Shown here one piece after another: positions 684 to 41,501 of a DNA stretch of 64,000 bases. The notes beneath the pieces are model-generated. The model saw only the letters and a program-made list of their open reading frames with translations, ran no database searches and was not told where the DNA came from. The DNA is from Rhodothermales bacterium. Lineage in GTDB: Bacteria; Bacteroidota; Rhodothermia; Rhodothermales; Bin80. The DNA lies in NCBI GenBank assembly GCA_965116685.1, contig OZ220707.1, positions 851,655 through 915,654 on the forward strand. Reading direction: 5' to 3'. The translations under genes and the position numbers were made by a program. Every line of letters starts with the position of its first letter. Positions within the stretch are counted from its first letter, which is position 1.

Positions 684-747
684 AGTCTACCTCGTTTCGT
701 GATCTATCTTAACATCACGCACTTGTGGTGCAAGCTCTCACGCTTTA

Positions 748-3982: not shown

Positions 3983-4146
3983 CCCAATGCCTTCTCCCTT
4001 ACTCCTGTAAATAACCTGTCATGGGCCGGGATCAAACAGGAACCAATCCGTGGTGCTCGCATCATATGGCAGTTGATCACTTTGAAGCTTGATCGGTAGC
4101 GAAAAAACTGTATCTTCTGGAGATCGCCTGAGTAGTTTCCAGCACC

Positions 4147-5892
4147 CTATAAGTCTACGATACGTTCCAGTTGCAAAAGCCGAACATCAGCGACCGCCTT
4201 CCCCGGGATGCTGATTGCCCGCAAAACAAGCGGCTCTTGTCCGGCTTCCAGAGAGATGGATCCAAGTACAAGCGAGTGAAAATCCTTGACGTATGACTCA
4301 ATCCTCTGCACACGATCTTCCTTCATTCCGTATTCAGTTGGATCATGTGCATCCACAATCGTAGCTCGCAGCGAAGCATCACCAAAGCTCAGATGAATTT
4401 GAGCGCCTTCATCCCCGACTGCTGCCGTATAATACAATGTCGCTTTGTACTGTCCGGTAGTCAGAACCTCTGCCTCCCATAGAATGGAGTCCTGTGTACT
4501 CGTCCAGTTGGTCAGAAAGCTGTCATTGGGATACCGGTTGGAGCGTTGGATCCCTTCCGATGCTGTCGCATCCCGGGCAGGGAGCCAGGTAATTCTCTCA
4601 TCTTCAAAGCCAATGGTAAAGGGGCGTTTCGGGTAGGATTCGGGGACTACCTCTCGAATCCAGCGTGCTTTTGCTTCTTCCAGAGAGTCCACTAATCCAG
4701 GGTGCTCAGAAGCTAAATCCACGCGCTGCTCTCGGTCATTCACGATATTGAAGAGCCCTCCCGAATGCCCTAAACGATACGTCTGGGTCCTTACACTCGT
4801 GCGTCCTCTCCAATGAGAAAAAATGACCCGCTCTGGCATTGATTTTATCTCCCCTTGAAGTAAAGGCGCAAAGCTAACTCCATCCAATGGATACCTGGTA
4901 TTAAGGTCAATGTTGCTGAACTCGGCCAGGGTTGGCATCAGATCAATCGCAGCAGCGATGTCAGTGATCACAGCCCCCTCAGCAATCACACCGGGCCATT
5001 GCATCAGAAGTGGTGAGCGAACACCTCCTTCATCCGTAGATCCTTTCCTGCCTTTCATGCCGGCATTCCATCGCGGACCATTCGGGCCATTGTCCGAAAA
5101 ATAGAGCACAATGGTCTCTTCCGTGAGAGATAAATCGTCCAGAAGCGTTAAGATCCTACCAACATTCCAGTCAATATTGAGCGTCATGGCGAGGGCTGCC
5201 CGTGTATGGAGGGTATCCTCCTGTTCCGGGGATCGGGGATGTTGCCGGAGCTCCGGTACCTGATCCCACCATTCATCGGGCACCTGCATGGGGGAATGCG
5301 GCGTGTTATAGGGCAAAAAAACAAGAAACGGGGACTCCGCATGCATACGCATAAACTCCATTGCAGACTCTGTCAAGTCATCTGGCAGGTACCCACTCCC
5401 TTGAACGAGTTCACCATTTCTCTCCAGAGGTGGAGAAAAATAATGTCCCCAATGGCCAGAGGGAAACCCATAAAAGTGATCGAATCCGCGGCTGTTTGGG
5501 TGGTATGGGGCCTGCTGTCCGTTGTGCCATTTCCCAAAGACCCCCGTAGCGTAGCCCGCGTCCTGGAAAACCTCAGAGAGTAAAGTCTCATCTGGATCCA
5601 GGCGTTCCGAACCCGCACTGGTTCCATACACACCCGACCGGGGATGGTATCGCCCTGTTAAAAGCTCTGCACGGGTTGGAGAACAGACCGGGCTTACATA
5701 AAAGCTCTCGAATCTGGCACCCGAATGGGCAATCCGATCAATATTCGATGTATTGATACTGGTATTGCCATTGATGGATAAATCGCCCCACCCCTGATCG
5801 TCTGTCAGGATAATGACCACGTTCGGGGGGCGTTCAGCGCTGCAGGATGCGAACAGCATTGCAGCAAATAGTAGATAAATCAATCGGAACAT
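4147..5892 (-). CDS. Secreted or lipoprotein sulfatase (arylsulfatase A family)
   Basis: Signal or lipobox-like N-terminus (LFASCSA), metal site DDQGWGD, and formylglycine motif CSPTRAELLTGR. Confidence 0.85.
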   Translation of the reverse strand: MFRLIYLLFAAMLFASCSAERPPNVVIILTDDQGWGDLSINGNTSINTSNIDRIAHSGARFESFYVSPVCSPTRAELLTGRYHPRSGVYGTSAGSERLDPDETLLSEVFQDAGYATGVFGKWHNGQQAPYHPNSRGFDHFYGFPSGHWGHYFSPPLERNGELVQGSGYLPDDLTESAMEFMRMHAESPFLVFLPYNTPHSPMQVPDEWWDQVPELRQHPRSPEQEDTLHTRAALAMTLNIDWNVGRILTLLDDLSLTEETIVLYFSDNGPNGPRWNAGMKGRKGSTDEGGVRSPLLMQWPGVIAEGAVITDIAAAIDLMPTLAEFSNIDLNTRYPLDGVSFAPLLQGEIKSMPERVIFSHWRGRTSVRTQTYRLGHSGGLFNIVNDREQRVDLASEHPGLVDSLEEAKARWIREVVPESYPKRPFTIGFEDERITWLPARDATASEGIQRSNRYPNDSFLTNWTSTQDSILWEAEVLTTGQYKATLYYTAAVGDEGAQIHLSFGDASLRATIVDAHDPTEYGMKEDRVQRIESYVKDFHSLVLGSISLEAGQEPLVLRAISIPGKAVADVRLLQLERIVDL

Positions 5893-18747: not shown

Positions 18748-19923
18748 TCAATCGCCCGAGTTACTTGATTCAAGGCGAACTTGAAGTTTTTCCAAGGGCT
18801 CGTTTGGAATGCGGTAGCCCCAGGGGGAAAAAGTTCGTGCATGACGAACGATTTTTTCCGTGAGCAGTGCCACCAAGAACTTTCCGTAAAGCCAGGCCTT
18901 CGCACTCTCTTGGTCATATTTCGGTAAATGACCAAATTGAGACAATGATTTGAATCGTTTGAATACGAGTTCAACCTGCCACCTCAGGCGATACCAATCA
19001 AGCACCTGCGATGCAGAAAATTGATCTGCTGGAAATGTGGTAAATACAATGACATAGCGCGCAAAGCGTAGCGTTTGTTCCATGGGCTTTGTTCCATGGT
19101 TTTGGGCATCCTTGCGAATTTTCTTGCAGGCCTTCTGGGCCGCTTCCTCTGTTTTCCGAAGGACACAAACACGCCCCGGTACCGGAGGATCCGACCCGAC
19201 GTACACCTTCCATTCCCCAATTGCACCAATGCGGGTGATGGACTCCACCGCACGCAACAGATCAAAGGATGTGTCAGGCTTCGTATGGAAATGGAGCGTA
19301 CCCGTATTCACACGAACGGTGACATACCCACCAGATTTTGTCACGTATTGCACGCCGCTGGCCGTTGCATAGACACGGTCCGCCAGAATATAATCCCCAG
19401 AATGAACCGGAAATTGTTTGAATGATTCGCCGGTTCCCTTTCCCTTGGTTGGAGTAAGTTTGAAGAAATCGCACCCAAAGGAAGGCAGGGCTACGCTATA
19501 ATGTATGCGCCACTGCGACCCAGTTCGTCCAGGCTCGCAGACCACCGTGGCATCAAACGCACGTACTTGATGCTTCGTATCACCAGAGATCGTGCTCCCA
19601 TGTTCCTCAAATAGTGCCTTGCAGAGTGCAGAAAGCCAGTCCCGAGATTTGCGTAGACGTTTGAGCAGCGCTACATCCGATAGCTCGGCCAGATTTGCCT
19701 GACGAGCTCGTACCACGGTTTCACGTAGGGAATGCCCGCATCCCAAATGGATAAGCAGCGTTCGCAGAAGGGCCTCTGGAGACTTATCCTTACGCAGTCC
19801 GCGTAAGGCGCCCGTATCCGCTGCTAAATCCTTCCAGTTCTCGGGCAGAAACGAAAGCAAGACACCCCAGTCCTCACTAATCGGTGCCGTCGTAACGGTT
19901 CGCTTCATGAAAATTCCGATCAA
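18748..19923 (-). CDS. IS4-family DDE transposase
   Basis: Carries the IS4 Y-(2)-R-(3)-E-(6)-K signature YRLRWQVELVFKRFK. The ORF is uninterrupted. The probable ATG start is at 19908; the track start at 19923 is a TTG. Confidence 0.85.
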   Translation of the reverse strand: MIGIFMKRTVTTAPISEDWGVLLSFLPENWKDLAADTGALRGLRKDKSPEALLRTLLIHLGCGHSLRETVVRARQANLAELSDVALLKRLRKSRDWLSALCKALFEEHGSTISGDTKHQVRAFDATVVCEPGRTGSQWRIHYSVALPSFGCDFFKLTPTKGKGTGESFKQFPVHSGDYILADRVYATASGVQYVTKSGGYVTVRVNTGTLHFHTKPDTSFDLLRAVESITRIGAIGEWKVYVGSDPPVPGRVCVLRKTEEAAQKACKKIRKDAQNHGTKPMEQTLRFARYVIVFTTFPADQFSASQVLDWYRLRWQVELVFKRFKSLSQFGHLPKYDQESAKAWLYGKFLVALLTEKIVRHARTFSPWGYRIPNEPLEKLQVRLESSNSGD

Positions 19924-20025: not shown

Positions 20026-20688
20026 AGTTCCTTTGATTTAGGGAAAGCTACAATAATTATTGATTGTAAACAAGTTAGCGCTTATGCGGATTGCTCCGGG
20101 CCCCCCGCACAGATCCGGACGTGCGCGTTAACGCATCCGGCTCCTCCCTCGGGTCGCACCGGCGTGCATAACGGCAGAATTGCCGTAGCCGATTGATCCC
20201 ATAAACTCACTGATCCATCTCTGTGTATGGCGTGAGCCCGGATCTCCCAGCTTCCCCTTGGGTGGGGACCTTCGCTCCAGCGACTCCGCAGGTCGCCCCT
20301 TGTTCGCCGCCTTCTTCACTACTATGTCCCCATCTGACTGCTCCATCCCGTGCATCGCAGGCTTCGGCGTCTTCCGCCTTCCCTGCGCGATCCCAACTCT
20401 GCGTTTAGGACAGGATAGAGCCCTCACAGGTCCCGACAAAATGCGTACATATGTCCCTGAGTTCTTAGACACCGTGGGCCTGTATGCCGCCTCGCCATGG
20501 CGGTGACATACATGTTGCCTTCGACCACTTGGACAGCCTCGGCGACCCAGACGATAACGATTTCGTTGCTCAATAGCTCCGGCCACACGCACCTCTACCG
20601 ACGCTTCGTCGTGACCCTCGCGGGGCACAACGCACGGCTCGAGGAAGTATGTGATTGGTTGCATCTTCATACTACGGGACTTGCACCC

Positions 20689-22572
20689 ATCGCGGTAGGG
20701 ACCCGAGTTTCCTCGGGCCCCCCGCACAGATCCGGACGTGCGCGTTAACGCATCCGGCTCCTCCCTTGGGTTACACTCGCGTGCTTGACGGAAAATCGTC
20801 TCGCCGGCCAGTCGTGTCGTATGTTCAGCTTCGGCCAATAGCGCTCAATGAGGATATCCAACTGCTCCCATGTGGTCCGATCCTTCTGGGATCGTCGACG
20901 TAGGATACACAGCCATACCCATTTCAAGCACTTAAAACATCTCCATAGGTACCGATAACTCCATGGTACGGCATAGTAATTCAGCCATCCATTAAGAACT
21001 TGGCCAAGCCATAGGCCCGTATCATGCACGCTTTCGTGCATCCGGCGCCATAGCTCCCTACGAATTCGTTTTATGAAGCGCACCATGCGCTTCGCGATTG
21101 GCTTACGGCCCAGCCCAAATGACCCCTTACGGGTTTTACGACAGTAATGTGTAAATCCCAGAAAGTCAAAGGTCTTCGGCTTGCCGTCTCCCCGTTTTCT
21201 ACGGTGCTCCATCGCGTTGCGACCAAATTCGATCAGTCGCGTTTTGTCTGGATGCAGACTCAATCCGAATTTCTCCAGTCGGGCCCGCAATGCACGTAGA
21301 AACTTCTCCGCCTCCTCCTTATACTTTCCACAAAATCGTCCGCATAACGAACGATATACGACTCTCCACCGATCTTGCGTGATTTGCGCTGGGACTCAAA
21401 CCATAAGTCCAGCACGTAATGAAGGTAGATGTTGGCCAGAATCGGAGAGATCACCGCGCCTTGCGGCGTGCCTCGCCTACTTTCCTGCCAGTTCCCATCC
21501 TCCATCACCCCCGCCTTCAGAAATTTTGTGATGAGTCGGAGCACCCGTTGATCTGCAATCCGGTGTTCCAGGAAGCGGAGTAACCACTCCTGATCCACCA
21601 TGTCAAAGAATTTCCGAATGTCCGCATCCACCACATAGTTGACCCTCCGGCGTTCGATCACATACGCGACGGCATCCAGTCCATCATGGGCACTGCGCCC
21701 CGGCCTGAATCCATAGCTGAACCCGCAGAACTCATTTTCATAAATGGGCTCTAAGATACATTTTACCATCGCGGTCTGGACGATCTTGTCCTCCAGCGCT
21801 GCGATCCCAAGCGGTCGTGTGCCTCCATCAGGCTTCGGTATATTCACCCGCCTGCTGGGGGTCGCTCGAAACGATCCACGGTGTACGCGTGTGCAGAGAT
21901 CCGCAAGGTTGCGGTCCAAGTCCACGCTATACTCCTCCCACGTCACGTTGTCCACCCCAGGGGACGCTTCTCGCTTTAATGCGAAAAACGCCGCCGTCAG
22001 TGATTCCACGCTGATGTGGTGCAAGAGCGTTGTAAACTTCGGGTTCCGTTGTACGACTTCCCGTATCCGCTCAATCCCCTGGTGCACACGCGCCCATTTC
22101 TGCGCATGGTGTGTGGTGGGATCTTGCGGATTCCCCTCGGGTAGAGGCCTTCGCTCCGACCGCTCCGCGGATGGCTCCTTGTTCGCGGTCTTCCTCACTA
22201 CTATGCCTCTATCTGACTTCTCCATCTCGTGCATCTTAGGCTTCGGCGTCTTCCGCCTTCTCTAAGCGGCCCCGTACGACTACAGGGCAAGATGGAGACC
22301 TCCCAGGTCCCGGCAAAGTGCGTACGTGCGTCCCTGAGTTCCTGGACACCGTGGGCCTGTAGATCCTCTCACCATAACGATGACCTACATGGTGCCTTCG
22401 ACCTGTAACACAGCCTCGACGACCCAGATAATGCATATTTCGTTGCTCAATAGCTCCGGCCACACGCACCGCTGCCGACACTTCATCGGGACCCTCACGG
22501 ATCACAACGCACGGCTCGCGGAAATATGTGTTTTGGTTAAACTTCATACTGCAGGACTTGCACCTGCTACAC
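20689..22572 (-). mobile_element. Group II intron copy A (likely class C-like, no En domain)
   Basis: On the minus strand the 5' end reads GUGUAGCAGGUGCAAGUCCUGC. DV is GAGCCGGAUGCGUUAACGCGCACGUCCGGAUC (20729-20760). DVI has a GAAA loop and a bulged A 8 nt from the 3' end, which reads ...CCGCGAU. Confidence 0.85.
20745..22234 (-). pseudogene. Group II intron reverse transcriptase/maturase, frameshifted after YADD (copy A)
   Basis: The 324-aa ORF holds RT blocks IPKPDGGTRPLGI, FRPGRSAHD, DADIRKFFD, GTPQGAVISPILANIYL and RYADDFV. The 181-aa ORF in another frame continues with ...LHPDKTRLIEF, FDFLGFTHY and the maturase motif LNGWLNYY. The shift is at about 21324-21334. Confidence 0.85.
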
Positions 22573-22595
22573 TTATGCCAGTTAGCCTGGCGTTC

Positions 22596-24479
22596 ATCGC
22601 GGTAGGGACCCGAGTTTCCTCGGGCCCCCCGCACAGATCCGGACGTGCGCGTTAACGCATCCGGCTCCTCCCTTGGGTTACACTCGCGTGCTTGACGGAA
22701 AATCGTCTCGCCGGCCAGTCGTGTCGTATGTTCAGCTTCGGCCAATAGCGCTCAATGAGGATATCCAACTGCTCCCATGTGGTCCGATCCTTCTGGGATC
22801 GTCGACGTAGGATACACAGCCATACCCATTTCAAGCACTTAAAACATCTCCATAGGTACCGATAACTCCATGGTACGGCATAGTAATTCAGCCATCCATT
22901 AAGAACTTGGCCAAGCCATAGGCCCGTATCATGCACGCTTTCGTGCATCCGGCGCCATAGCTCCCTACGAATTCGTTTTATGAAGCGCACCATGCGCTTC
23001 GCGATTGGCTTACGGCCCAGCCCAAATGACCCCTTACGGGTTTTACGACAGTAATGTGTAAATCCCAGAAAGTCAAAGGTCTTCGGCTTGCCGTCTCCCC
23101 GTTTTCTACGGTGCTCCATCGCGTTGCGACCAAATTCGATCAGTCGCGTTTTGTCTGGATGCAGACTCAATCCGAATTTCTCCAGTCGGGCCCGCAATGC
23201 ACGTAGAAACTTCTCCGCCTCCTCCTTATACTTTCCACAAAATCGTCCGCATAACGAACGATATACGACTCTCCACCGATCTTGCGTGATTTGCGCTGGG
23301 ACTCAAACCATAAGTCCAGCACGTAATGAAGGTAGATGTTGGCCAGAATCGGAGAGATCACCGCGCCTTGCGGCGTGCCTCGCCTACTTTCCTGCCAGTT
23401 CCCATCCTCCATCACCCCCGCCTTCAGAAATTTTGTGATGAGTCGGAGCACCCGTTGATCTGCAATCCGGTGTTCCAGGAAGCGGAGTAACCACTCCTGA
23501 TCCACCATGTCAAAGAATTTCCGAATGTCCGCATCCACCACATAGTTGACCCTCCGGCGTTCGATCACATACGCGACGGCATCCAGTCCATCATGGGCAC
23601 TGCGCCCCGGCCTGAATCCATAGCTGAACCCGCAGAACTCATTTTCATAAATGGGCTCTAAGATACATTTTACCATCGCGGTCTGGACGATCTTGTCCTC
23701 CAGCGCTGCGATCCCAAGCGGTCGTGTGCCTCCATCAGGCTTCGGTATATTCACCCGCCTGCTGGGGGTCGCTCGAAACGATCCACGGTGTACGCGTGTG
23801 CAGAGATCCGCAAGGTTGCGGTCCAAGTCCACGCTATACTCCTCCCACGTCACGTTGTCCACCCCAGGGGACGCTTCTCGCTTTAATGCGAAAAACGCCG
23901 CCGTCAGTGATTCCACGCTGATGTGGTGCAAGAGCGTTGTAAACTTCGGGTTCCGTTGTACGACTTCCCGTATCCGCTCAATCCCCTGGTGCACACGCGC
24001 CCATTTCTGCGCATGGTGTGTGGTGGGATCTTGCGGATTCCCCTCGGGTAGAGGCCTTCGCTCCGACCGCTCCGCGGATGGCTCCTTGTTCGCGGTCTTC
24101 CTCACTACTATGCCTCTATCTGACTTCTCCATCTCGTGCATCTTAGGCTTCGGCGTCTTCCGCCTTCTCTAAGCGGCCCCGTACGACTACAGGGCAAGAT
24201 GGAGACCTCCCAGGTCCCGGCAAAGTGCGTACGTGCGTCCCTGAGTTCCTGGACACCGTGGGCCTGTAGATCCTCTCACCATAACGATGACCTACATGGT
24301 GCCTTCGACCTGTAACACAGCCTCGACGACCCAGATAATGCATATTTCGTTGCTCAATAGCTCCGGCCACACGCACCGCTGCCGACACTTCATCGGGACC
24401 CTCACGGATCACAACGCACGGCTCGCGGAAATATGTGTTTTGGTTAAACTTCATACTGCAGGACTTGCACCTGCTACAC
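22596..24479 (-). mobile_element. Group II intron copy B
   Basis: Offset +1907 from copy A, with identical ORF translations. Confidence 0.85.
22652..24141 (-). pseudogene. Group II intron RT/maturase, same frameshift (copy B)
   Basis: The 324-aa and 181-aa translations are identical to copy A. Confidence 0.85.
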
Positions 24480-24502
24480 TTATGCCAGTTAGCCTGGCGT
24501 TC

Positions 24503-26386
24503 ATCGCGGTAGGGACCCGAGTTTCCTCGGGCCCCCCGCACAGATCCGGACGTGCGCGTTAACGCATCCGGCTCCTCCCTTGGGTTACACTCGCGTGCTT
24601 GACGGAAAATCGTCTCGCCGGCCAGTCGTGTCGTATGTTCAGCTTCGGCCAATAGCGCTCAATGAGGATATCCAACTGCTCCCATGTGGTCCGATCCTTC
24701 TGGGATCGTCGACGTAGGATACACAGCCATACCCATTTCAAGCACTTAAAACATCTCCATAGGTACCGATAACTCCATGGTACGGCATAGTAATTCAGCC
24801 ATCCATTAAGAACTTGGCCAAGCCATAGGCCCGTATCATGCACGCTTTCGTGCATCCGGCGCCATAGCTCCCTACGAATTCGTTTTATGAAGCGCACCAT
24901 GCGCTTCGCGATTGGCTTACGGCCCAGCCCAAATGACCCCTTACGGGTTTTACGACAGTAATGTGTAAATCCCAGAAAGTCAAAGGTCTTCGGCTTGCCG
25001 TCTCCCCGTTTTCTACGGTGCTCCATCGCGTTGCGACCAAATTCGATCAGTCGCGTTTTGTCTGGATGCAGACTCAATCCGAATTTCTCCAGTCGGGCCC
25101 GCAATGCACGTAGAAACTTCTCCGCCTCCTCCTTATACTTTCCACAAAATCGTCCGCATAACGAACGATATACGACTCTCCACCGATCTTGCGTGATTTG
25201 CGCTGGGACTCAAACCATAAGTCCAGCACGTAATGAAGGTAGATGTTGGCCAGAATCGGAGAGATCACCGCGCCTTGCGGCGTGCCTCGCCTACTTTCCT
25301 GCCAGTTCCCATCCTCCATCACCCCCGCCTTCAGAAATTTTGTGATGAGTCGGAGCACCCGTTGATCTGCAATCCGGTGTTCCAGGAAGCGGAGTAACCA
25401 CTCCTGATCCACCATGTCAAAGAATTTCCGAATGTCCGCATCCACCACATAGTTGACCCTCCGGCGTTCGATCACATACGCGACGGCATCCAGTCCATCA
25501 TGGGCACTGCGCCCCGGCCTGAATCCATAGCTGAACCCGCAGAACTCATTTTCATAAATGGGCTCTAAGATACATTTTACCATCGCGGTCTGGACGATCT
25601 TGTCCTCCAGCGCTGCGATCCCAAGCGGTCGTGTGCCTCCATCAGGCTTCGGTATATTCACCCGCCTGCTGGGGGTCGCTCGAAACGATCCACGGTGTAC
25701 GCGTGTGCAGAGATCCGCAAGGTTGCGGTCCAAGTCCACGCTATACTCCTCCCACGTCACGTTGTCCACCCCAGGGGACGCTTCTCGCTTTAATGCGAAA
25801 AACGCCGCCGTCAGTGATTCCACGCTGATGTGGTGCAAGAGCGTTGTAAACTTCGGGTTCCGTTGTACGACTTCCCGTATCCGCTCAATCCCCTGGTGCA
25901 CACGCGCCCATTTCTGCGCATGGTGTGTGGTGGGATCTTGCGGATTCCCCTCGGGTAGAGGCCTTCGCTCCGACCGCTCCGCGGATGGCTCCTTGTTCGC
26001 GGTCTTCCTCACTACTATGCCTCTATCTGACTTCTCCATCTCGTGCATCTTAGGCTTCGGCGTCTTCCGCCTTCTCTAAGCGGCCCCGTACGACTACAGG
26101 GCAAGATGGAGACCTCCCAGGTCCCGGCAAAGTGCGTACGTGCGTCCCTGAGTTCCTGGACACCGTGGGCCTGTAGATCCTCTCACCATAACGATGACCT
26201 ACATGGTGCCTTCGACCTGTAACACAGCCTCGACGACCCAGATAATGCATATTTCGTTGCTCAATAGCTCCGGCCACACGCACCGCTGCCGACACTTCAT
26301 CGGGACCCTCACGGATCACAACGCACGGCTCGCGGAAATATGTGTTTTGGTTAAACTTCATACTGCAGGACTTGCACCTGCTACAC
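24503..26386 (-). mobile_element. Group II intron copy C
   Basis: Offset +3814 from copy A, with identical ORF translations. Confidence 0.85.
24559..26048 (-). pseudogene. Group II intron RT/maturase, same frameshift (copy C)
   Basis: The 324-aa and 181-aa translations are identical to copy A. Confidence 0.85.
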
Positions 26387-26409
26387 TTATGCCAGTTAGC
26401 CTGGCGTTC

Positions 26410-28293
26410 ATCGCGGTAGGGACCCGAGTTTCCTCGGGCCCCCCGCACAGATCCGGACGTGCGCGTTAACGCATCCGGCTCCTCCCTTGGGTTACACTCG
26501 CGTGCTTGACGGAAAATCGTCTCGCCGGCCAGTCGTGTCGTATGTTCAGCTTCGGCCAATAGCGCTCAATGAGGATATCCAACTGCTCCCATGTGGTCCG
26601 ATCCTTCTGGGATCGTCGACGTAGGATACACAGCCATACCCATTTCAAGCACTTAAAACATCTCCATAGGTACCGATAACTCCATGGTACGGCATAGTAA
26701 TTCAGCCATCCATTAAGAACTTGGCCAAGCCATAGGCCCGTATCATGCACGCTTTCGTGCATCCGGCGCCATAGCTCCCTACGAATTCGTTTTATGAAGC
26801 GCACCATGCGCTTCGCGATTGGCTTACGGCCCAGCCCAAATGACCCCTTACGGGTTTTACGACAGTAATGTGTAAATCCCAGAAAGTCAAAGGTCTTCGG
26901 CTTGCCGTCTCCCCGTTTTCTACGGTGCTCCATCGCGTTGCGACCAAATTCGATCAGTCGCGTTTTGTCTGGATGCAGACTCAATCCGAATTTCTCCAGT
27001 CGGGCCCGCAATGCACGTAGAAACTTCTCCGCCTCCTCCTTATACTTTCCACAAAATCGTCCGCATAACGAACGATATACGACTCTCCACCGATCTTGCG
27101 TGATTTGCGCTGGGACTCAAACCATAAGTCCAGCACGTAATGAAGGTAGATGTTGGCCAGAATCGGAGAGATCACCGCGCCTTGCGGCGTGCCTCGCCTA
27201 CTTTCCTGCCAGTTCCCATCCTCCATCACCCCCGCCTTCAGAAATTTTGTGATGAGTCGGAGCACCCGTTGATCTGCAATCCGGTGTTCCAGGAAGCGGA
27301 GTAACCACTCCTGATCCACCATGTCAAAGAATTTCCGAATGTCCGCATCCACCACATAGTTGACCCTCCGGCGTTCGATCACATACGCGACGGCATCCAG
27401 TCCATCATGGGCACTGCGCCCCGGCCTGAATCCATAGCTGAACCCGCAGAACTCATTTTCATAAATGGGCTCTAAGATACATTTTACCATCGCGGTCTGG
27501 ACGATCTTGTCCTCCAGCGCTGCGATCCCAAGCGGTCGTGTGCCTCCATCAGGCTTCGGTATATTCACCCGCCTGCTGGGGGTCGCTCGAAACGATCCAC
27601 GGTGTACGCGTGTGCAGAGATCCGCAAGGTTGCGGTCCAAGTCCACGCTATACTCCTCCCACGTCACGTTGTCCACCCCAGGGGACGCTTCTCGCTTTAA
27701 TGCGAAAAACGCCGCCGTCAGTGATTCCACGCTGATGTGGTGCAAGAGCGTTGTAAACTTCGGGTTCCGTTGTACGACTTCCCGTATCCGCTCAATCCCC
27801 TGGTGCACACGCGCCCATTTCTGCGCATGGTGTGTGGTGGGATCTTGCGGATTCCCCTCGGGTAGAGGCCTTCGCTCCGACCGCTCCGCGGATGGCTCCT
27901 TGTTCGCGGTCTTCCTCACTACTATGCCTCTATCTGACTTCTCCATCTCGTGCATCTTAGGCTTCGGCGTCTTCCGCCTTCTCTAAGCGGCCCCGTACGA
28001 CTACAGGGCAAGATGGAGACCTCCCAGGTCCCGGCAAAGTGCGTACGTGCGTCCCTGAGTTCCTGGACACCGTGGGCCTGTAGATCCTCTCACCATAACG
28101 ATGACCTACATGGTGCCTTCGACCTGTAACACAGCCTCGACGACCCAGATAATGCATATTTCGTTGCTCAATAGCTCCGGCCACACGCACCGCTGCCGAC
28201 ACTTCATCGGGACCCTCACGGATCACAACGCACGGCTCGCGGAAATATGTGTTTTGGTTAAACTTCATACTGCAGGACTTGCACCTGCTACAC
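26410..28293 (-). mobile_element. Group II intron copy D
   Basis: Offset +5721 from copy A, with identical ORF translations. Confidence 0.85.
26466..27955 (-). pseudogene. Group II intron RT/maturase, same frameshift (copy D)
   Basis: The 324-aa and 181-aa translations are identical to copy A. Confidence 0.85.
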
Positions 28294-28316
28294 TTATGCC
28301 AGTTAGCCTGGCGTTC

Positions 28317-30200
28317 ATCGCGGTAGGGACCCGAGTTTCCTCGGGCCCCCCGCACAGATCCGGACGTGCGCGTTAACGCATCCGGCTCCTCCCTTGGGTT
28401 ACACTCGCGTGCTTGACGGAAAATCGTCTCGCCGGCCAGTCGTGTCGTATGTTCAGCTTCGGCCAATAGCGCTCAATGAGGATATCCAACTGCTCCCATG
28501 TGGTCCGATCCTTCTGGGATCGTCGACGTAGGATACACAGCCATACCCATTTCAAGCACTTAAAACATCTCCATAGGTACCGATAACTCCATGGTACGGC
28601 ATAGTAATTCAGCCATCCATTAAGAACTTGGCCAAGCCATAGGCCCGTATCATGCACGCTTTCGTGCATCCGGCGCCATAGCTCCCTACGAATTCGTTTT
28701 ATGAAGCGCACCATGCGCTTCGCGATTGGCTTACGGCCCAGCCCAAATGACCCCTTACGGGTTTTACGACAGTAATGTGTAAATCCCAGAAAGTCAAAGG
28801 TCTTCGGCTTGCCGTCTCCCCGTTTTCTACGGTGCTCCATCGCGTTGCGACCAAATTCGATCAGTCGCGTTTTGTCTGGATGCAGACTCAATCCGAATTT
28901 CTCCAGTCGGGCCCGCAATGCACGTAGAAACTTCTCCGCCTCCTCCTTATACTTTCCACAAAATCGTCCGCATAACGAACGATATACGACTCTCCACCGA
29001 TCTTGCGTGATTTGCGCTGGGACTCAAACCATAAGTCCAGCACGTAATGAAGGTAGATGTTGGCCAGAATCGGAGAGATCACCGCGCCTTGCGGCGTGCC
29101 TCGCCTACTTTCCTGCCAGTTCCCATCCTCCATCACCCCCGCCTTCAGAAATTTTGTGATGAGTCGGAGCACCCGTTGATCTGCAATCCGGTGTTCCAGG
29201 AAGCGGAGTAACCACTCCTGATCCACCATGTCAAAGAATTTCCGAATGTCCGCATCCACCACATAGTTGACCCTCCGGCGTTCGATCACATACGCGACGG
29301 CATCCAGTCCATCATGGGCACTGCGCCCCGGCCTGAATCCATAGCTGAACCCGCAGAACTCATTTTCATAAATGGGCTCTAAGATACATTTTACCATCGC
29401 GGTCTGGACGATCTTGTCCTCCAGCGCTGCGATCCCAAGCGGTCGTGTGCCTCCATCAGGCTTCGGTATATTCACCCGCCTGCTGGGGGTCGCTCGAAAC
29501 GATCCACGGTGTACGCGTGTGCAGAGATCCGCAAGGTTGCGGTCCAAGTCCACGCTATACTCCTCCCACGTCACGTTGTCCACCCCAGGGGACGCTTCTC
29601 GCTTTAATGCGAAAAACGCCGCCGTCAGTGATTCCACGCTGATGTGGTGCAAGAGCGTTGTAAACTTCGGGTTCCGTTGTACGACTTCCCGTATCCGCTC
29701 AATCCCCTGGTGCACACGCGCCCATTTCTGCGCATGGTGTGTGGTGGGATCTTGCGGATTCCCCTCGGGTAGAGGCCTTCGCTCCGACCGCTCCGCGGAT
29801 GGCTCCTTGTTCGCGGTCTTCCTCACTACTATGCCTCTATCTGACTTCTCCATCTCGTGCATCTTAGGCTTCGGCGTCTTCCGCCTTCTCTAGGCGGCCC
29901 CGTACGACTACAGGGCAAGATGGAGACCTCCCAGGTCCCGGCAAAGTGCGTACGTGCGTCCCTGAGTTCCTGGACACCGTGGGCCTGTAGATCCTCTCAC
30001 CATAACGATGACCTACATGGTGCCTTCGACCTGTAACACAGCCTCGACGACCCAGATAATGCATATTTCGTTGCTCAATAGCTCCGGCCACACGCACCGC
30101 TGCCGACACTTCATCGGGACCCTCACGGATCACAACGCACGGCTCGCGGAAATATGTGTTTTGGTTAAACTTCATACTGCAGGACTTGCACCTGCTACAC
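28317..30200 (-). mobile_element. Group II intron copy E (5'-most copy in intron orientation)
   Basis: Offset +7628 from copy A. Carries a single observed substitution at 29893. Confidence 0.85.
28373..29862 (-). pseudogene. Group II intron RT/maturase, same frameshift (copy E)
   Basis: The 324-aa and 181-aa translations are identical to copy A. Confidence 0.85.
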
Positions 30201-30223
30201 TTATGCCAGTTAGCCTGGCGTTC

Positions 30224-30252
30224 GTTACATTTTGCCAGTTAGCCTGGCGCTC
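30224..30252 (-). repeat. Orphan, slightly diverged copy of the intron leader hairpin (no intron attached)
   Basis: The minus strand reads GAGCGCCAGGCUAACUGGCAAAAUGUAAC. The leader in each unit reads GAACGCCAGGCUAACUGGCAUAA followed by GUGUAGC. The two share an identical 17-nt core. Confidence 0.7.
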
Positions 30253-30535
30253 CCAAGAGTTATTCCCCAAGGCCCGCCTGATCCACGATCGTTTTCATTT
30301 GATCCAGTACCTCAACAAAGGGATTGATCCGGTTCGCCGCAGGGAAGTGAAACAGCATGAGGAACTCAAACCCAGTCGTTATGCGATCTTGAAAAACGAA
30401 CCGTATCGAACGCAAACGCAAGACGAGATCTTCAACGTCATCCAGGAAGCCAACTTGCAGGTCAGCGTTGCCTGGCGGCTGCGAGAGGAATTCAAGGCGA
30501 TCTTCCGATGCGACTCATGGTCGGATGCAAAGCAA
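30253..30535 (+). pseudogene. ISL3 transposase, central fragment
   Basis: Translation QELFPKARLIHDRFHLIQYLNKGIDPVRRREV...FRCDSWSDAKQ matches the DDE_Tnp_ISL3 region. It ends at the IS1634-like insertion. Confidence 0.8.
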
Positions 30536-30644
30536 AACCTGACTTTGACGGTTTCGATTTTTCCAGGTACAAAACCACTGTTTCCGTGCTTTCTGGGAGG
30601 TTTTTTTTTGGCCTTCCTGTGTAGTGTTCAGTCTTGCTTTTTAA

Positions 30645-31448
30645 TTGTATTTTTCGTATCTTTGTAATTCACCAACCAACTGTGTCATGTGGGTCCGAGA
30701 ACTCAAACGAAAAACCACGAAAAACATCTCTGTCCAGATTGTTGAGAGCTACCGTAATAAGGAAAGAAAGCCGCGGGTTCGTATCGTCCGACACATGGGA
30801 AGCGTTCACCCGGATGCAGTGGACGGTCTGGTTAAAATTGCCTATCTGGAATTAGCTCGGATCCAAGAAGACCTGCAACCCTCCTTATTTCCTGCAGAGT
30901 CTTATGTAGACGAGGTGGTGGCTGCCCGCAGAAAAAAACGGGAGTCGAAGGCACTGGTGATCAAAGATGCACGGAAGCTGGAGGAAATACGGCGCATCTG
31001 TCTGGGCTTTCACGAGGTCATGGGGGCCCTGTATCACCAGATGCGGTTTACAGAGGTCTTTGATCGCCGTCAGAAGATGTCTCGTCGTCTGTTCAAGCAA
31101 GCGGTTTTACTTCGTCTGGCTGCACCTGGGGATAGTAAACTGGCCCATGCACGGCAGATGTCCAAGGATGCGGGGGTGGACGTTCCGGTGGAGAAGTTCT
31201 ATCGGATGATGGATGCCGTCACGGACGACCGAATTGAACAGATGAAGCAGCTGGTCTCCAACGAGACGCTCGGCATGCTTGGCGGGAAACTGAAGGTGCT
31301 GTTTTTTGATGTGACGACATTGAGCTTTGCCAGTGAGTTGCCGGATGAGCTACGCAAGAAAGGGTTTAGCAAGGATGGGAAGCCCAAAAAGGTTCAGTTG
31401 GTCTTGGCATTGATCCAAACCCAAGAAGGGCTTCCGGTCACGTACGAA
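30645..31448 (+). pseudogene. IS1634-family transposase, N-terminal half (interrupted)
   Basis: N-terminus (M)WVRELKRKTTKNISVQIVESYRNKERKPRVRIVRHMG and ...KKGFSKDGKPKKVQLVLALIQTQEGLPVTYE are typical of the family. The probable start is at 30687. Confidence 0.8.
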
Positions 31449-38720: not shown

Positions 38721-40550
38721 ATGTCTAGCTTTTCAGAAAACATTACGAATCAACATCCAGATCGAACACACACTTGCGGCAAGCTCTCGGATATACATCT
38801 AGGTGAGCAGGTTGTACTAAAAGGCTGGGTGGATACACGGCGGGATCTAGGAGGTGTCATTTTTATAGATCTCCGGGATCGCTATGGCCTGACGCAAATT
38901 GTATTCTCGCCTCAAGACAATCCCGCTGCACATGAACTTGCGGACCGCCTGCGCAGCGAGTACGTCATCTCCGTCATGGGCTTTGTTGCACCGCGCTCAC
39001 CCGAAACCGTGAATCCCAAACTCTCAACGGGGAGAATTGAGGTTCGAGTTGAGAGTCTCCTCATTCTTGCCGAATCGGAGACCTTGCCATTTTCCATCTC
39101 CAGTCATACACAAAAGACAAAGCTAGCCTCTGAAGATCTGCGCCTGAGATATCGGTACCTTGATCTCAGGAGACCGGATCTGTTACAGAAAATGATCCTG
39201 AGACATCAGGTTTACCAAGTGATCCACCGCTATTTTGATGCAGAAGGATTTCTTGAAGTGGAAACGCCAACCCTCATGAAATCAACACCCGAGGGTGCAC
39301 GCGACTATCTGGTTCCAAGCCGGGTACATCCGGCATCCTTCTACGCCCTTCCTCAGAGTCCACAGACCTATAAGCAGCTTCTGATGATCGGGGGATTAGA
39401 TAAATATGTTCAGATTGTCAAATGCTTCCGAGACGAAGACCTGCGTGCCGACCGGCAACCGGAGTTCACACAGATTGATGTGGAAATGGCCTTTGCAACG
39501 GAAGAGGCAGTCTATTCCCTGATCGAAGGCTTGATGTCAGCACTCTGGGACGAGGTTCTTGGCATTAAGCTGCCCACCCCCTTTCCGCAACTGACCTACC
39601 AGGATGCACTCTGGAAATATGGCTCTGACAAGCCTGACCTGCGTTTTGATCTTCAGATATGCAGCCTCAGTTCTACGTTCGAAAACTCGGGATTCCGTGT
39701 ATTCGATCAGGTTCTTTCTGCAGGAGGGTCGGTATTGGGACTGGTCATTCCAGAGTTTGGTGACAAGGGCAGAGGGTATATGGATCGCCTGGATAAGACG
39801 GTGGTGCGCAAACAAATCGGAGCCGGCGGTCTGATTCATGTGCGAATCCCTTCCGACGGCTCCCCTCCCAACTGTTCTGTAAAAACTCATGTGCTTCCAG
39901 AAGAATTTGTAACCGGGGCGATCCAGATATCTGGAGCCAAGGCAGGAGATCTCCTACTGATTCTTTGTGGCCAATGGCCCACGGTACAACAGCAAATGGG
40001 AGCCCTCCGCCTGCATATGGCCCATGAGCTTGGCTGCGTCGATGAGAGCTCCTGGCAGTTTGCATGGATTACAGAATTCCCGCTACTGCAATGGGATGAG
40101 CGGGAAAAACGCTATTCAGCCATGCATCATCCGTTTACCTCCCCAAGAATAGATGATCTGGAACTGCTCTCAAGCGATCCGGCACATGTTCGCGCTCGCG
40201 CCTACGATATCGTGCTCAATGGAATGGAGATTGGAGGAGGATCAATCCGTATCCATGATCAAAAAGTTCAAAAACAAATGTTCGATACTCTGGGAATTCC
40301 CGACGAAGAGAGTGAAGAACGATTTGGATTTTTGCTCGAAGCTTTGCGTTACGGAGCCCCTCCGCATGGAGGGATCGCCATGGGGCTGGATCGGATTGCC
40401 ATGCTACTTTCACAATCAACGTCTCTCCGGGAAGTGATTGCATTTCCGAAGACACAAAGTGCACAAGAGCCTATGTCTGGCACCCCCTCAACGGTTGAAC
40501 CTGAACGACTCAATGAATTAAATATTCGGTCTATCCCAAAGCCCGAATGA
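38721..40550 (+). CDS. aspS: Aspartate--tRNA ligase
   Basis: OB-fold N-terminus (GWVDTRRDLGGVIFIDLRDRYG), class II motifs (FRDEDLRADRQPEFTQID, GGGSIRIH, GLDR). The ATG at 38721 is preferred over the track start at 38664. Confidence 0.92.
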   Translation: MSSFSENITNQHPDRTHTCGKLSDIHLGEQVVLKGWVDTRRDLGGVIFIDLRDRYGLTQIVFSPQDNPAAHELADRLRSEYVISVMGFVAPRSPETVNPKLSTGRIEVRVESLLILAESETLPFSISSHTQKTKLASEDLRLRYRYLDLRRPDLLQKMILRHQVYQVIHRYFDAEGFLEVETPTLMKSTPEGARDYLVPSRVHPASFYALPQSPQTYKQLLMIGGLDKYVQIVKCFRDEDLRADRQPEFTQIDVEMAFATEEAVYSLIEGLMSALWDEVLGIKLPTPFPQLTYQDALWKYGSDKPDLRFDLQICSLSSTFENSGFRVFDQVLSAGGSVLGLVIPEFGDKGRGYMDRLDKTVVRKQIGAGGLIHVRIPSDGSPPNCSVKTHVLPEEFVTGAIQISGAKAGDLLLILCGQWPTVQQQMGALRLHMAHELGCVDESSWQFAWITEFPLLQWDEREKRYSAMHHPFTSPRIDDLELLSSDPAHVRARAYDIVLNGMEIGGGSIRIHDQKVQKQMFDTLGIPDEESEERFGFLLEALRYGAPPHGGIAMGLDRIAMLLSQSTSLREVIAFPKTQSAQEPMSGTPSTVEPERLNELNIRSIPKPE

Positions 40551-40978
40551 CTGATGCCTATGCATTATTACTGCAAGATCAATTCCCCTGGGAGCGCTGG
40601 GAAAAATTAATCCTCTCCGAGGGCATCCTGCTGGATCGCCAAAAAAAAACGCCCCATCCCCGGTATCCAGATATTATTTATCCGATGGATTATGGGTTCA
40701 TCTGCAATACCTCAAGCTCTGATGGTGCTGAAGTGGATGTATTCGTGGGCTCTGGTGGAGAGCGCCTAGTTGGAATGATGGTCACAGATGACTACCGGCA
40801 AGGGGACCGGGAGATCAAATTCCTCTGGCGCTGCCTTCCTTCAGAGATTTATCTGGCGTATGGGTTCATCAATTTTGATCCTTCGAAGTTAAAGGGACGG
40901 CTTATCCTTCGCTTTCCCATGAAAATACTCTGGGAAATGCAGGAGCAAAGGATTGAGCATTCGGAAAATTTGCCGTAA
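40547..40978 (+). CDS. Small inorganic-pyrophosphatase-like protein
   Basis: YPMDYGFICNTSSSDGAEVDVFV resembles the family I PPase motif YP-NYG-I--T---DGD-VDVLV. ATGA overlap with aspS. Confidence 0.5.
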   Translation: MTDAYALLLQDQFPWERWEKLILSEGILLDRQKKTPHPRYPDIIYPMDYGFICNTSSSDGAEVDVFVGSGGERLVGMMVTDDYRQGDREIKFLWRCLPSEIYLAYGFINFDPSKLKGRLILRFPMKILWEMQEQRIEHSENLP

Positions 40979-41007: not shown

Positions 41008-41411
41008 GATCCCGTAGCTCAGTTGGAAGAGCATCTGACTTTAAGTCATGGAGCCTCTTGCAGGAAACTGCATGAGTGGAGGCTGCTGTATGCTGGGACG
41101 CCCTAAAGTCGTCGCTACGTCGTCACACGTAAAAATGCGACGGATAGATGGGTAATCAGCAGGCAACCTTGAATTGGGCAATCCAGTCCGTTCCCTTAAC
41201 CGTGCCGGGTTATTGGAAATCATTCTGGGCCCTTTTCCGCATGGTGCGGATTCAAGAGAGCCCTCAGAGGCCATACGCAGCCCACCCTACCCCATCAAAT
41301 TGGAAGGGTGAAGAGATGGTCCAGACCACAACATGAATCCAAATGGCCGGTGAAAGCCGGTGTGGTAGGTTAATCAGAGGGTCCCAGGTTCGAGCCCTGG
41401 CGGGATCACCA
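41008..41411 (+). tRNA. tRNA-Lys(UUU) gene interrupted in the anticodon loop by a 328-nt insert (exons 41008-41041 and 41370-41411, including encoded CCA)
   Basis: The acceptor GAUCCCG/CGGGAUC, D arm GCUC-AGUUGGAA-GAGC, anticodon stem UCUGA/UCAGA, T arm CCAGG-UUCGAGC-CCUGG and A73 all pair perfectly once 41042-41369 is removed. The joined loop reads CUUUUAA. Confidence 0.8.
41042..41369 (+). ncRNA. Putative group I intron in the tRNA-Lys anticodon loop (between positions 34 and 35)
   Basis: The 5' exon ends in U and the insert ends in G. GNRA-capped hairpins lie at 41059-41072 and 41347-41360. Pseudoknot-compatible pairings are GGAUUCA (41248-54) with UGAAUCC (41334-40), and ACCAC (41325-29) with GUGGU (41362-66). 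Q-like AAUCAGCAGG and R-like UCCAGACCACA elements are present. Confidence 0.55.
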
Positions 41412-41414
41412 TCA

Positions 41415-41501
41415 GCCCGGGTGGCGGAATAGGTAGACGCGCTGTCTTGAGGGGGCAGTGCCCTTATGGGCGTGCTGGTTCGATTCCAGTCCCGGGCACC
41501 A
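41415..41501 (+). tRNA. tRNA-Leu(GAG), class II with a long variable arm, CCA encoded
   Basis: Acceptor GCCCGGG/CCCGGGC, anticodon stem CUGUC/GGCAG with loop UUGAGGG, long variable arm, T loop UUCGAUU. Confidence 0.9.

Follow-up and report, generated by a model that had tools for sequence, protein, structure and literature searches.

A tRNA-Lys(UUU) gene of Rhodothermales split between U34 and U35 by a predicted group I intron without an open reading frame

Introduction

A tRNA gene whose two halves lie 328 nt apart raises the question of what separates them, whether the gene can still yield its tRNA and how the interruption came about. Such a locus is situated at positions 41008-41411 of the 64,000-nt stretch of Rhodothermales DNA analyzed here (hereafter “the window”), and all the features described below are on its plus strand. 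A previous sequence-only reading had seen in it a tRNA-Lys(UUU) gene interrupted by a group I intron between U34 and U35, and this central interpretation stood every test that we ran. We hold with high confidence that the locus 41008-41411 represents a functional tRNA-Lys(UUU) gene from an uncultured Rhodothermales bacterium, carrying between U34 and U35 a group I intron devoid of an open reading frame (ORF).

Loci of this kind are easily overlooked. ARAGORN in its default mode misses the split tRNA-Lys gene, and an Rfam search at gathering level reports nothing at this locus; genomes of the clade consequently look as if they were devoid of a tRNA-Lys(UUU) gene, and annotation pipelines need intron-aware tRNA searching. 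The knowledge on the mechanism of group I introns is left unchanged by our analysis, and tRNA-Lys insertions of this class have been on record since 2020. What is new here is that the intron tracks its flanking genes, together with the occurrence of PD-(D/E)XK ORFs in the P6 domain of several relatives and of deletion remnants of such ORFs in others.

The Split Gene and Its Splice-Site Register

The 5' exon (41008..41041) comprises tRNA positions 1-34 and ends in C32-U33-U34; the 3' exon (41370..41411) comprises positions 35-73 (41370-41408) followed by an encoded CCA (41409-41411). Once joined, they form a 76-nt tRNA-Lys(UUU), CCA included, with four stems free of mispairs, the anticodon loop CUUUUAA and the discriminator base A73, and ARAGORN assigns the joined exons to tRNA-Lys(ttt). 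The flawless cloverleaf, the loop and A73 had thus been read correctly from the letters alone. Anticodon UUU and discriminator A73 are the main identity elements for lysyl-tRNA synthetase (LysRS) in Escherichia coli. The 73 nt of an intact tRNA-Lys(UUU) gene at a related locus (L055) are identical to the joined exons of the window, its 5' half being the same 34-mer as 41008-41041.

The boundaries of the intron can be drawn in two registers: U occupies both 41040 and 41041, and G both 41368 and 41369, and either choice leaves a U before the intron and a G at its end. With both boundaries moved one base to the left (intron 41041-41368), the anticodon loop would become CUGUUAA and the gene would encode tRNA-Asn(GUU). 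ARAGORN with introns allowed does detect the split tRNA, placing the 328-nt intron at position 34, and calls the genomic locus tRNA-Asn(gtt); besides, a 31-nt stretch of the 3' half is common to four tRNA-Asn(GUU) genes of Flavobacteriales or Crocinitomicaceae. The homologous introns nonetheless argue for the lysine register. The wobble pair U41041·G41051 at the splice site of P1 is U·G in 36 of 36 homologues, and the conserved splice-site U·G of the Rfam model aligns to this very pair, while the preceding U (41040) faces A41052 in a Watson-Crick pair, again in all 36. The last intron base is G in every homologue (the omega-G, G41369 in the window), and five of these introns end in ...UAAG, for which only the lysine boundary is possible, since the shifted register would leave them with a terminal A. 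Moreover, the 16 intact genes that share the acceptor stem of the window all have anticodon UUU (16/16), whereas the tRNA-Asn genes differ in their acceptor stem and carry G73 in place of the A73 of the split gene. On the position of the U·G pair in P1, the ...UAAG ends and the UUU of the intact genes, the Asn(GUU) register was rejected, and we consider it very improbable.

An Asn(GUU) product was one of the outcomes that the sequence-only reading had named as fatal to its own proposal, along with the lack of a covariance-model match; the former is excluded, and such a match exists (see below). Its claims that the insert follows a U (U41041) and ends in G (G41369, the omega-G rule) are confirmed. 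So is its claim that the 34/35 site is that of the classical tRNA-Leu(UAA) intron, both being “position 3” in the nomenclature of Williams (2020).

Group I Identity and Fold of the Insert

The covariance-model search that had been recommended together with the original reading matched 41032-41337 to the full Rfam model Intron_gpI (RF00028, model positions 1-253) with 44.2 bits and an E-value of 4.8e-10 (search of 571 nt), a score that falls below the gathering score of 50. Thirteen Rhodothermales homologues are likewise not reported by this model at gathering level; four phage homologues that are shorter and share the P4/P5/Q core reach 56.5-64.3 bits, above that score. The minimum free energy (MFE) of the intron has a z of -3.4 with respect to 100 shuffles, and the MFE fold independently gives P3, P4, P5, P5a/b, P6, P6a, P8, and P9. 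Judged by the RF00028 match, the 36 same-site homologues and the covariation described below, the 328-nt insert (41042..41369) is a genuine group I intron without an endonuclease ORF, and its splicing is predicted. A different kind of element (a MITE, an IS fragment or an assembly artefact) lying by chance in the anticodon loop would agree with the silence of default annotation tools at the locus, but it is refuted by the full-length match to the group I model and by the covariation that backs the P3/P7 pseudoknot; the identical locus is also present in an independent assembly (L001, from ERR14375725), with homologues in 36 genomes and eight metagenome contigs, and we give this explanation practically no credence.

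In an alignment of 36 distinct homologues (64-97% identity), 94.6% of the cells pair as proposed, vs. 33-40% when the partners are slid by 1-3 columns; compensatory changes are found at 27 pairs, and none of 500 shuffles reaches the observed values. The addition of six phage homologues raises the number of compensatory pairs to 40, and over both alignments 92.8-94.6% of the cells are paired, vs. 33-41% in the slid controls. All the helices of the P3-P8 core are present in canonical order, with covariation in support of the P3/P7 pseudoknot.

In P1 (41039..41053), exon bases C-U-U and intron bases U-A (41039-43) pair with the internal guide UGGAG (41049-53). P2 (41055..41076) is formed by 41055-63 and 41068-76, with the GAAA loop L2 at 41064-67; six of its nine pairs show compensatory changes and 97.8% of its cells are paired, the window copy having one U·U mismatch (41058·41073) that is A-U in its nearest relatives. 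The 5' strand of P3, GGCUGC (41081..41086), pairs with GCAGCC (41277..41282); the helix is invariant in Rhodothermales, and with the phage homologues five of its six pairs are compensatory and 100% of its cells paired. The P4-P5 domain (41091..41161) contains P4 (41091-96 / 41156-61), invariant and recurring as a core motif in 58 viral contigs, and P5 (41100-03 / 41150-53), both recovered by the MFE fold. It also includes P5a (41109-15 / 41137-43), with six of seven pairs compensatory, P5b (41117-20 / 41127-30), in which U-A and C-G covary in a proportion of 17:17, and an A-rich stretch (41131-36); P5a and P5b are backed by covariation and by the MFE fold. The P6 domain (41162..41262) consists of P6 (41162-64 / 41260-62), P6a (41168-74 / 41250-56; five of seven pairs compensatory) and a variable P6b insert (41175-41249), which is where an endonuclease ORF is situated in some relatives.

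The R element (41263-41276) follows, and includes the 5' strand of P7, G(A)GGCCA (41267..41273), with A41268 bulged, at the position expected from the Rfam consensus AGACUA/UAGUC. Its partner UGGUCC (41317..41322), placed by the Rfam model and the covariation alignments, comes after J8/7 (AAGAGA, 41311-16). P7 is paired in 100% of the cells in both alignments, and one compensatory pair appears once the phage homologues are added. G41269-C41321 is the predicted guanosine-binding pair, presumably the counterpart of G264-C311 of the Tetrahymena intron, on which analogy the assignment is made. P8 (41283..41310; 41283-88 / 41305-10, with an inner P8a at 41292-94 / 41301-03) has the support of both covariation and the MFE fold. 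The P9 domain (41325..41369) is composed of P9 (41325-30 / 41361-66), P9a (41332-34 / 41343-45) and P9b (41347-51 / 41356-60), the latter closed by a GAAA tetraloop (41352-55), and ends in the terminal AGG with the omega-G at 41369; P9 and P9b are paired in 98.6 and 99.4% of the cells, respectively, with compensatory pairs.

Within the Rhodothermales, P4, P6, most of P7, and P8 are invariant, and so offer no covariation signal there. These invariant core helices are backed by the phage homologues and by their agreement with the consensus of the family.

The fold differs in some points from that first drawn from the letters. The complementarity between 41248-54 and 41334-40, which had been taken for a helix of P3/P7 type, is confined to the window and the three relatives closest to it (7/7 or 5-6/7 pairs) and is absent from the other 32 homologues; about three 7-mer complementarities of this sort are expected by chance in 328 nt, according to our estimate, and it was rejected as a tertiary or pseudoknot helix. 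The pairing of 41325-29 with 41362-66 is real, although it is nested and corresponds to P9, not to a pseudoknot. Similarly, AAUCAGCAGG, named as Q, was placed well, as it is the 3' strand of P4, but UCCAGACCACA, named as R, turns out to consist of the end of S followed by the 5' strand of P9.

Comparison With Known tRNA Introns

The architecture of the intron is IC3-like: it has P2 without P2.1, it has neither P7.1 nor P7.2, L2 and L9b carry GAAA, and J7/3 has only 3 nt. The four classical tRNA introns of bacteria belong to subgroup IC3. The intron of tRNA-Leu(UAA) (Leu.3Ug, from cyanobacteria and plastids) and that of Azoarcus tRNA-Ile(CAU) are, like the window intron, inserted in the anticodon loop, the former at the same loop position. 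The classical introns also share with it a P1 made from anticodon-loop bases, the splice-site U·G wobble and the terminal G, as well as the presence of P2, the absence of P7.1/P7.2 and the GAAA tetraloops on P2 and P9. The core sequences are different: P4 and J3/4 read UGUAUGCUGG...UCAGCA in the window, vs. AAAUUCGGGG...CCCGA in classical tRNA introns, and J6/7 reads CUCAGAG, vs. GUAGAG. In P4, J3/4, and J6/7 the window intron thus departs from the IC3 seeds and the classical tRNA introns, and matches a core type common to many phage introns.

The sequence-only reading had regarded a group I intron in tRNA-Lys(UUU) as unprecedented, which does not hold: Williams (2020; bioRxiv 10.1101/2020.01.27.920355) extended the four classical types of tRNA intron to 21, and the seed alignment of that work includes Lys.3Ug, Lys.4Ug, and Lys.2Ug introns, the Lys.3Ug seed being homologous to the window intron. 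The class Lys.3Ug was predicted by software (Williams, 2020), and no splicing test of it was found in the literature. The window intron appears to belong to this class, as it lies between the third and fourth bases of the anticodon loop (U34/U35) of a Lys-type tRNA body, and Mle24.Lys.3Ug, its closest relative in print, gives the best global alignment score to it among the 15 seed introns compared. Both introns have the same host tRNA and insertion point (CUU / intron ...g / UUAA), the guide UGGAG, the AGG ending, the same order of helices and GAAA in L2 and L9, and share the identical 15-nt blocks AUGCUGGGACGCCCU and UGGGUAAUCAGCAGG (P4/P5 and P5'/P4'); the differences between them in P3, P6, P7, and P8 are compensatory. 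The window intron is longer (328 nt, vs. approximately 250 nt in Mle24), its P6 extension being much larger and its P5 extension different. For Rhodothermales, Rhodothermus or Salinibacter, a literature search brought up no relevant work on group I introns.

Proposed Splicing

The split gene would be transcribed, probably as one unit with the tRNA-Leu(GAG) gene beginning 3 nt downstream, and the intron would fold into the canonical P1-P9 group I architecture. C32-U33-U34 and the first two intron bases would pair with the guide UGGAG (41049-53) to form P1, placing U41041·G41051 at the 5' splice site, and a free guanosine bound at the P7 site (G41269-C41321) would attack after U41041. The terminal G41369 would next occupy the guanosine site of P7, and the 3'-OH of U34 would attack the bond after G41369, whereby U34 is ligated to U35 and the loop CUUUUAA is formed again. 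Catalysis by the window intron is suggested by its conservation. The GAAA tetraloops of L2 and L9b probably clamp the fold, if the Azoarcus tRNA-Ile intron is taken as a model, and their docking in the window intron is proposed by this analogy.

On direct reading, P10 is weak or absent in the window intron, and alignment of the exons would therefore rely on the anticodon stem. The weak P10 could also be expected if the insert were a true group I intron that depends in vivo on a host protein, such as a chaperone or a factor binding tRNA, for its folding or for exon alignment. Protein assistance in vivo is known for many group I introns, and the score of the model is lowered here by the long variable P5 and P6 extensions, which would suit such dependence as well. 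However, its closest well-studied relatives, which interrupt bacterial tRNA genes in Azoarcus and Anabaena, self-splice in vitro, and the two conserved GAAA tetraloops suggest a tertiary clamp made of RNA only; a need for protein help is hence considered rather unlikely.

Distribution, Neighborhood and Inheritance

Same-site homologues of 315-423 nt are present in 36 species-level genomes, nearly all of them Rhodothermales, and in 16 further genomes, nearly all titled Rhodothermales, the tRNA-Lys gene is uninterrupted at the syntenic locus. The neighborhood (AspRS / 143-aa ORF / tRNA-Lys / tRNA-Leu(GAG)) is the same around the intact genes wherever flanks are available. The tRNA-Leu(GAG) gene (41415..41501; ARAGORN, and Rfam with 48.6 bits) starts 3 nt after the CCA in the window and lies downstream in nearly all related loci, which makes co-transcription of the pair likely. 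In a scan for sigma-70 promoters and terminators around the two tRNA genes, sites were no commoner than in shuffled sequence, and none was found upstream of the tRNA; the scan says little here, since the group may use other promoter types.

Across the intron-bearing loci the exons are nearly invariant, while the introns go down to 64% identity. Where the acceptor stem varies, it does so in a compensatory manner across the split: G7-C66 is replaced by A-U in five genomes, and in L057 the stem reads GACCUCG/CGAGGUC. A 31-nt word of the 3' exon is common to all 56 genome loci and has exactly one match per genome, including 14 records titled whole chromosomes, the gene count per genome being that of the matches to this word only. 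Exon invariance, acceptor-stem covariation and the single match per genome point to a gene that has been kept functional; it is plausible that no other tRNA-Lys(UUU) gene exists and that splicing of the split one is hence essential.

The identity of the introns follows that of the proteins encoded by the flanking genes (Spearman 0.87, n = 30), and in a neighbor-joining tree of these proteins, which is crude (about 440 aligned residues), the intact genes form one clade. An intron tracking its flanking genes in this manner fits vertical descent. These data bear on whether the locus might be a dead tRNA gene with a decayed, non-splicing intron, another tRNA-Lys gene supplying lysine decoding. Such a state would be compatible with the lack of an endonuclease ORF, the Rfam score under the gathering score and the one mismatch in P2 of the window. 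It would not be expected of a pseudogene, however, that exons and catalytic core stay near-invariant in 36 species while the peripheral helices change in a compensatory way, that acceptor-stem pairs covary between the exons, that the exon word is matched once per genome (whole-chromosome records included), or that the intron co-diverges with its flanking genes, and we judge a dead gene to be highly unlikely.

Endonuclease ORFs, Phage Relatives and Origin

The window intron contains no ORF above 77 aa, in keeping with the first reading, in which no homing-endonuclease ORF was evident; the window copy is therefore not a mobile intron in the sense of having an endonuclease ORF inside it. Three relatives do carry ORFs of 130-160 aa in P6, which match PF11645 with E-values of 5e-21 (L118, 150 aa), 2e-18 (L114) and 4e-17 (L094). 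L118 is a host-type metagenome contig, L094 and L114 are large phage contigs, and the ORFs of L118 and L114 are 49% identical. PF11645 is probably linked to I-Ssp6803I in Pfam. A search of PDB sequences with the ORFs of the relatives did not retrieve I-Ssp6803I, the best match being an Hjc resolvase with an E-value of 0.01. I-Ssp6803I is the PD-(D/E)XK homing endonuclease of the Synechocystis tRNA-fMet intron, according to the citation in PMC3943268 (ref. 50). The resemblance thus lies in a mobile form with a small PD-(D/E)XK endonuclease, borne here by L118, L094, and L114 and, unlike in Synechocystis, absent from the window copy.

In two further loci (L029 and L117), P6 keeps both ends of the endonuclease ORF around an internal deletion. 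When the phage endonucleases were compared with the Rhodothermales introns by tblastn, most of the matches corresponded to the conserved ribozyme core translated as MGNQQAT, and a weak match in L029 to a real ORF remnant; in the window intron the core was the only match, with nothing in P6b. One orthologous locus thus occurs as an intact gene, with an intron plus a PD-(D/E)XK ORF, with an intron plus deletion remnants of the ORF, and with an ORF-less intron, these being the stages expected of a homing-endonuclease cycle. Together with the close relatives in phage tRNA-Lys genes, the series is convenient for studying the spread, the loss of mobility and the fixation of tRNA introns.

The intron most likely entered the tRNA gene as a mobile element with a PD-(D/E)XK homing endonuclease in P6; we infer the direction of its transfer between phage and host. 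The ORF-bearing form would persist in phage tRNA-Lys genes and in one host-type contig, and the lineage of the window would have lost the ORF, the intron being inherited vertically thereafter in one Rhodothermales clade. A wider reading is offered tentatively, with slightly more doubt than belief: the split gene would be the sole source of tRNA-Lys(UUU) for a family-level clade of Rhodothermales, in which ribozyme splicing would have been indispensable for reading AAA codons from the origin of the clade onward. The intron would stem from an exchange with large phages, in the tRNA arrays of which the endonuclease form is still present, and one orthologous locus would preserve every stage of endonuclease decay.

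The P4-P5-Q core motif of the window intron is carried by 58 IMG/VR contigs. The viral copies are mostly situated in protein-coding genes and contain ORFs, in contrast to the window intron. The phage introns L094 and L114 split tRNA-Lys(UUU) at the same site as in the window, with ribozymes approximately 70% identical to that of the window, but the phage tRNA-Lys exons differ from the Rhodothermales gene in having other acceptor stems.

The split tRNA-Lys(UUU) gene and its recognition

Excision of positions 41042-41369 (328 nt) fuses GATCCCGTAGCTCAGTTGGAAGAGCATCTGACTT with TTAATCAGAGGGTCCCAGGTTCGAGCCCTGGCGGGATCACCA, and ARAGORN folds the joined 76-mer (exons 41008-41041 and 41370-41411) as a tRNA-Lys(ttt) with four perfectly paired stems, a CUUUUAA loop, discriminator A73 and an encoded CCA. 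Direct reading and ARAGORN thus bear out the exon junction, cloverleaf, loop and discriminator described in a sequence-only reading of the locus. With default settings, ARAGORN does not call the split tRNA-Lys, only the adjoining tRNA-Leu(GAG) (41415-41501) being found at the locus, and Rfam reports no group I intron in the whole window at gathering scores; the practical value of the locus lies in a split tRNA-Lys gene that is missed by standard annotation. The search with Intron_gpI (RF00028) proposed in that reading was carried out locally by E-value, and returned an alignment spanning the full model (1-253) at 41032-41337 with an E-value of 4.8e-10, although its 44.2 bits fall under the gathering score of 50. 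Compared with 100 dinucleotide shuffles, the minimum free energy of the intron is lower by 3.4 sd, and the corresponding fold recovers P3, P4, P5, P5a/b, P6, P6a, P8 and P9 unaided. No ORF longer than 77 aa was found in the intron, in agreement with the earlier reading that no homing-endonuclease ORF is evident in it. The insert is a genuine group I intron within a real tRNA-Lys(UUU) gene at 41008-41411, its proposed boundaries being correct and its splicing predicted.

Distribution and conservation of the locus

Relatives were found via a 31-nt word of the 3' exon, scanning one genome per species. This yielded 56 loci, one per genome, nearly all titled Rhodothermales or Rhodothermaceae metagenome-assembled genomes: 36 carry an insert of 315-423 nt at exactly the same site (one of them cut by a contig end), 16 are intact tRNA-Lys(UUU) genes, and the remaining four are Flavobacteriales or Crocinitomicaceae tRNA-Asn(GUU) genes. 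The word matched once per genome, including 14 whole-chromosome-titled records; a divergent paralogue would escape it. An independent assembly (L001) contains the window's own contig, identical, and the introns of the nearest species representatives are 96-97% identical to that of the window. One intact gene (L055) equals the window's joined exons over 73 nt, and the order AspRS, 143-aa ORF, tRNA-Lys, tRNA-Leu(GAG) is common to intron-bearing and intron-free genomes. In five intron-bearing genomes the pair G7-C66, which spans both exons, is replaced in a compensatory manner by A-U, and another locus (L057) shows an acceptor stem GACCUCG/CGAGGUC, also compensatory across both exons. Such cross-exon compensation is the signature of a tRNA still in use. 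The 143-aa ORF (40547-40978, forward strand), which at its start overlaps the stop codon of AspRS, is conserved beside the tRNA pair throughout Rhodothermales; its match to inorganic pyrophosphatase (PF00719) is weak and sub-threshold (22.5 bits, cut-off 23.5).

Lysine or asparagine register

Because U occupies both 41040 and 41041, and G both 41368 and 41369, a register one base leftward yields the anticodon GUU, and this is exactly the register called at the locus by ARAGORN when introns are allowed. The tRNA-Asn(GUU) register was excluded on three counts. The wobble U41041·G41051, where the conserved splice-site pair of Rfam aligns, and the neighboring Watson-Crick pair U41040-A41052 are both present in 36/36 homologues; the intron ends in ...UAAG in five homologues, and is therefore G-terminal in the Lys register only; and the anticodon is UUU in every intact gene sharing the body of the split gene. 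The four Flavobacteriales tRNA-Asn(GUU) genes, with part of the 3' half in common, have a different acceptor stem and G73. The 31 nt that these genes (L023, L038, L048, L056; Flavobacteriales or Crocinitomicaceae) have in common with the Rhodothermales tRNA-Lys take in the anticodon stem's 3' strand together with the variable loop and T arm, which accounts for the Asn label that intron-aware tRNA finders can wrongly give the split gene.

Relation to known tRNA introns

The Rfam model and an exon-based mapper, applied to ~80,000 genomes, expanded the 4 known tRNA intron settings to 21, with Mle24.Lys.3Ug, Mpe6.Lys.4Ug and Dba165.Lys.2Ug included in the seed alignment (Williams, bioRxiv 2020). 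Mle24.Lys.3Ug and the window intron agree in insertion point and guide sequence (UGGAG), and both contain the identical blocks AUGCUGGGACGCCCU and UGGGUAAUCAGCAGG and end in AGG. Their P3, P6, P7 and P8 differ through compensatory changes. The window intron belongs to this class, catalogued in 2020, so its tRNA-Lys setting was already known, contrary to what had been supposed from the sequence. The “group I introns” described in cyanobacterial tRNA-Lys by a 2017 paper, at 22-49 nt, do not constitute a valid precedent. A literature search for group I introns in Rhodothermales found nothing.

Intron structure

A group I structure, derived by hand under the guidance of the Rfam alignment and the published Lys.3Ug seed, was projected onto an alignment of 36 distinct introns (64-97% identity). 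Standard pairs occupy 94.6% of cells, vs. 33-40% with the 3' partners slid by 1-3 columns, and 27 pairs show compensatory changes; the observed pairing or covariation was reached by 0/500 shuffles. Covariation is strong in P2, P5a, P6a and P9a. P3, P4, P6, P7 and P8 are invariant in the Rhodothermales clade, so this alignment is uninformative on them, a gap resolved by adding six phage homologues: P3 is then compensatory in five of its six pairs, P3 and P7 are 100% paired, and compensatory pairs rise to 40 overall. Neither of the helices initially assigned to a pseudoknot retains that role, since 41325-30/41361-66 is P9 instead, and 41248-54/41334-40 lacks conservation, being limited to the window plus its three nearest relatives. 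The window's P2, otherwise of 9 bp, carries a U·U mismatch at 41058 and 41073 in place of the A-U of the three closest relatives (L039, L003, L011), a single recent substitution.

Phage copies and intron history

The P4-P5-Q core motif, in the exact form ATGCTGGRACNCCC...GGGYWATCAGCAGG, occurs in 58 IMG/VR viral contigs (L058-L115), mostly in protein-coding genes and sometimes in phage tRNA arrays; four shorter copies score above the Rfam gathering score (56.5-64.3 bits). In the phage introns of protein-coding genes, an ORF often begins just past P6. Two large phage-like contigs with tRNA arrays, L094 (263 kb) and L114 (180 kb), have a tRNA-Lys(UUU) split at the window's site by introns of 648 nt (3665-4312, reverse strand) and 708 nt (3536-4243, reverse strand), respectively. 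Their ribozymes are ~70% identical to that of the window, and each has a P6-loop ORF matching PF11645 (PD-(D/E)XK endonuclease family). In a further phage tRNA-Lys(UUU) (L085), the insertion point of a related intron lies one base later (CUUU|...|UAA).

A metagenome scan with the intron end plus 3' exon returned eight host-type contigs, each with tRNA-Leu(GAG) after tRNA-Lys. In L118 (JAAUYD010024619.1), a host-type tRNA-Lys(UUU) followed by tRNA-Leu(GAG) carries a 699-nt intron (168-866, forward strand) with an intact 150-aa PF11645 ORF in P6 (E 5e-21), 49% identical to the L114 ORF. The final ~20 codons of the L118 ORF traverse the P6, P7 and P3 ribozyme strands. In three introns of 423-435 nt (L029, at 1576-1998 on the reverse strand, L117 and L121) an internal deletion of ~270 nt has left the two termini of the endonuclease ORF in place, and these introns represent intermediate steps in its loss. 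In the window, P6b (41175-41249) lies where the relatives have their ORF, with no endonuclease-ORF remnant detectable in it. Intron identity rises with that of the flanking proteins (Spearman 0.87, n=30), and the intact genes form one clade in a rough neighbor-joining tree. Because of the ORF-bearing and remnant-bearing relatives, this correlation and the intact-gene clade, the data are consistent with one invasion by an intron that carried the endonuclease, followed by endonuclease decay and vertical inheritance of the ribozyme. The evolutionary value of the locus is that it preserves the whole life cycle of the homing endonuclease of a tRNA intron.

Apparent mobile elements elsewhere in the window

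A tandem head-to-tail array of group II introns, with a unit of ~1.9 kb and six Rfam group-II-D1D4-6 matches, lies at 20407-30192 (reverse strand). Five units are spaced exactly 1907 bp and show 100% identity across the 300 nt compared; over a 281-nt stretch covering the D1-D4 matches these five copies agree, and the sixth (20407-20687) is 81% identical. A reverse-transcriptase ORF (324 aa, PF00078) is present in every unit. The array may reflect genuine repeated self-insertion or may be an artefact of assembly. It is bordered by DDE transposase ORFs (PF01609 and PF01610) at 18748-19923 (reverse strand) and 30008-30667 (forward strand), so that the whole stretch at 18.7-31.5 kb has the appearance of a mobile-element nest.
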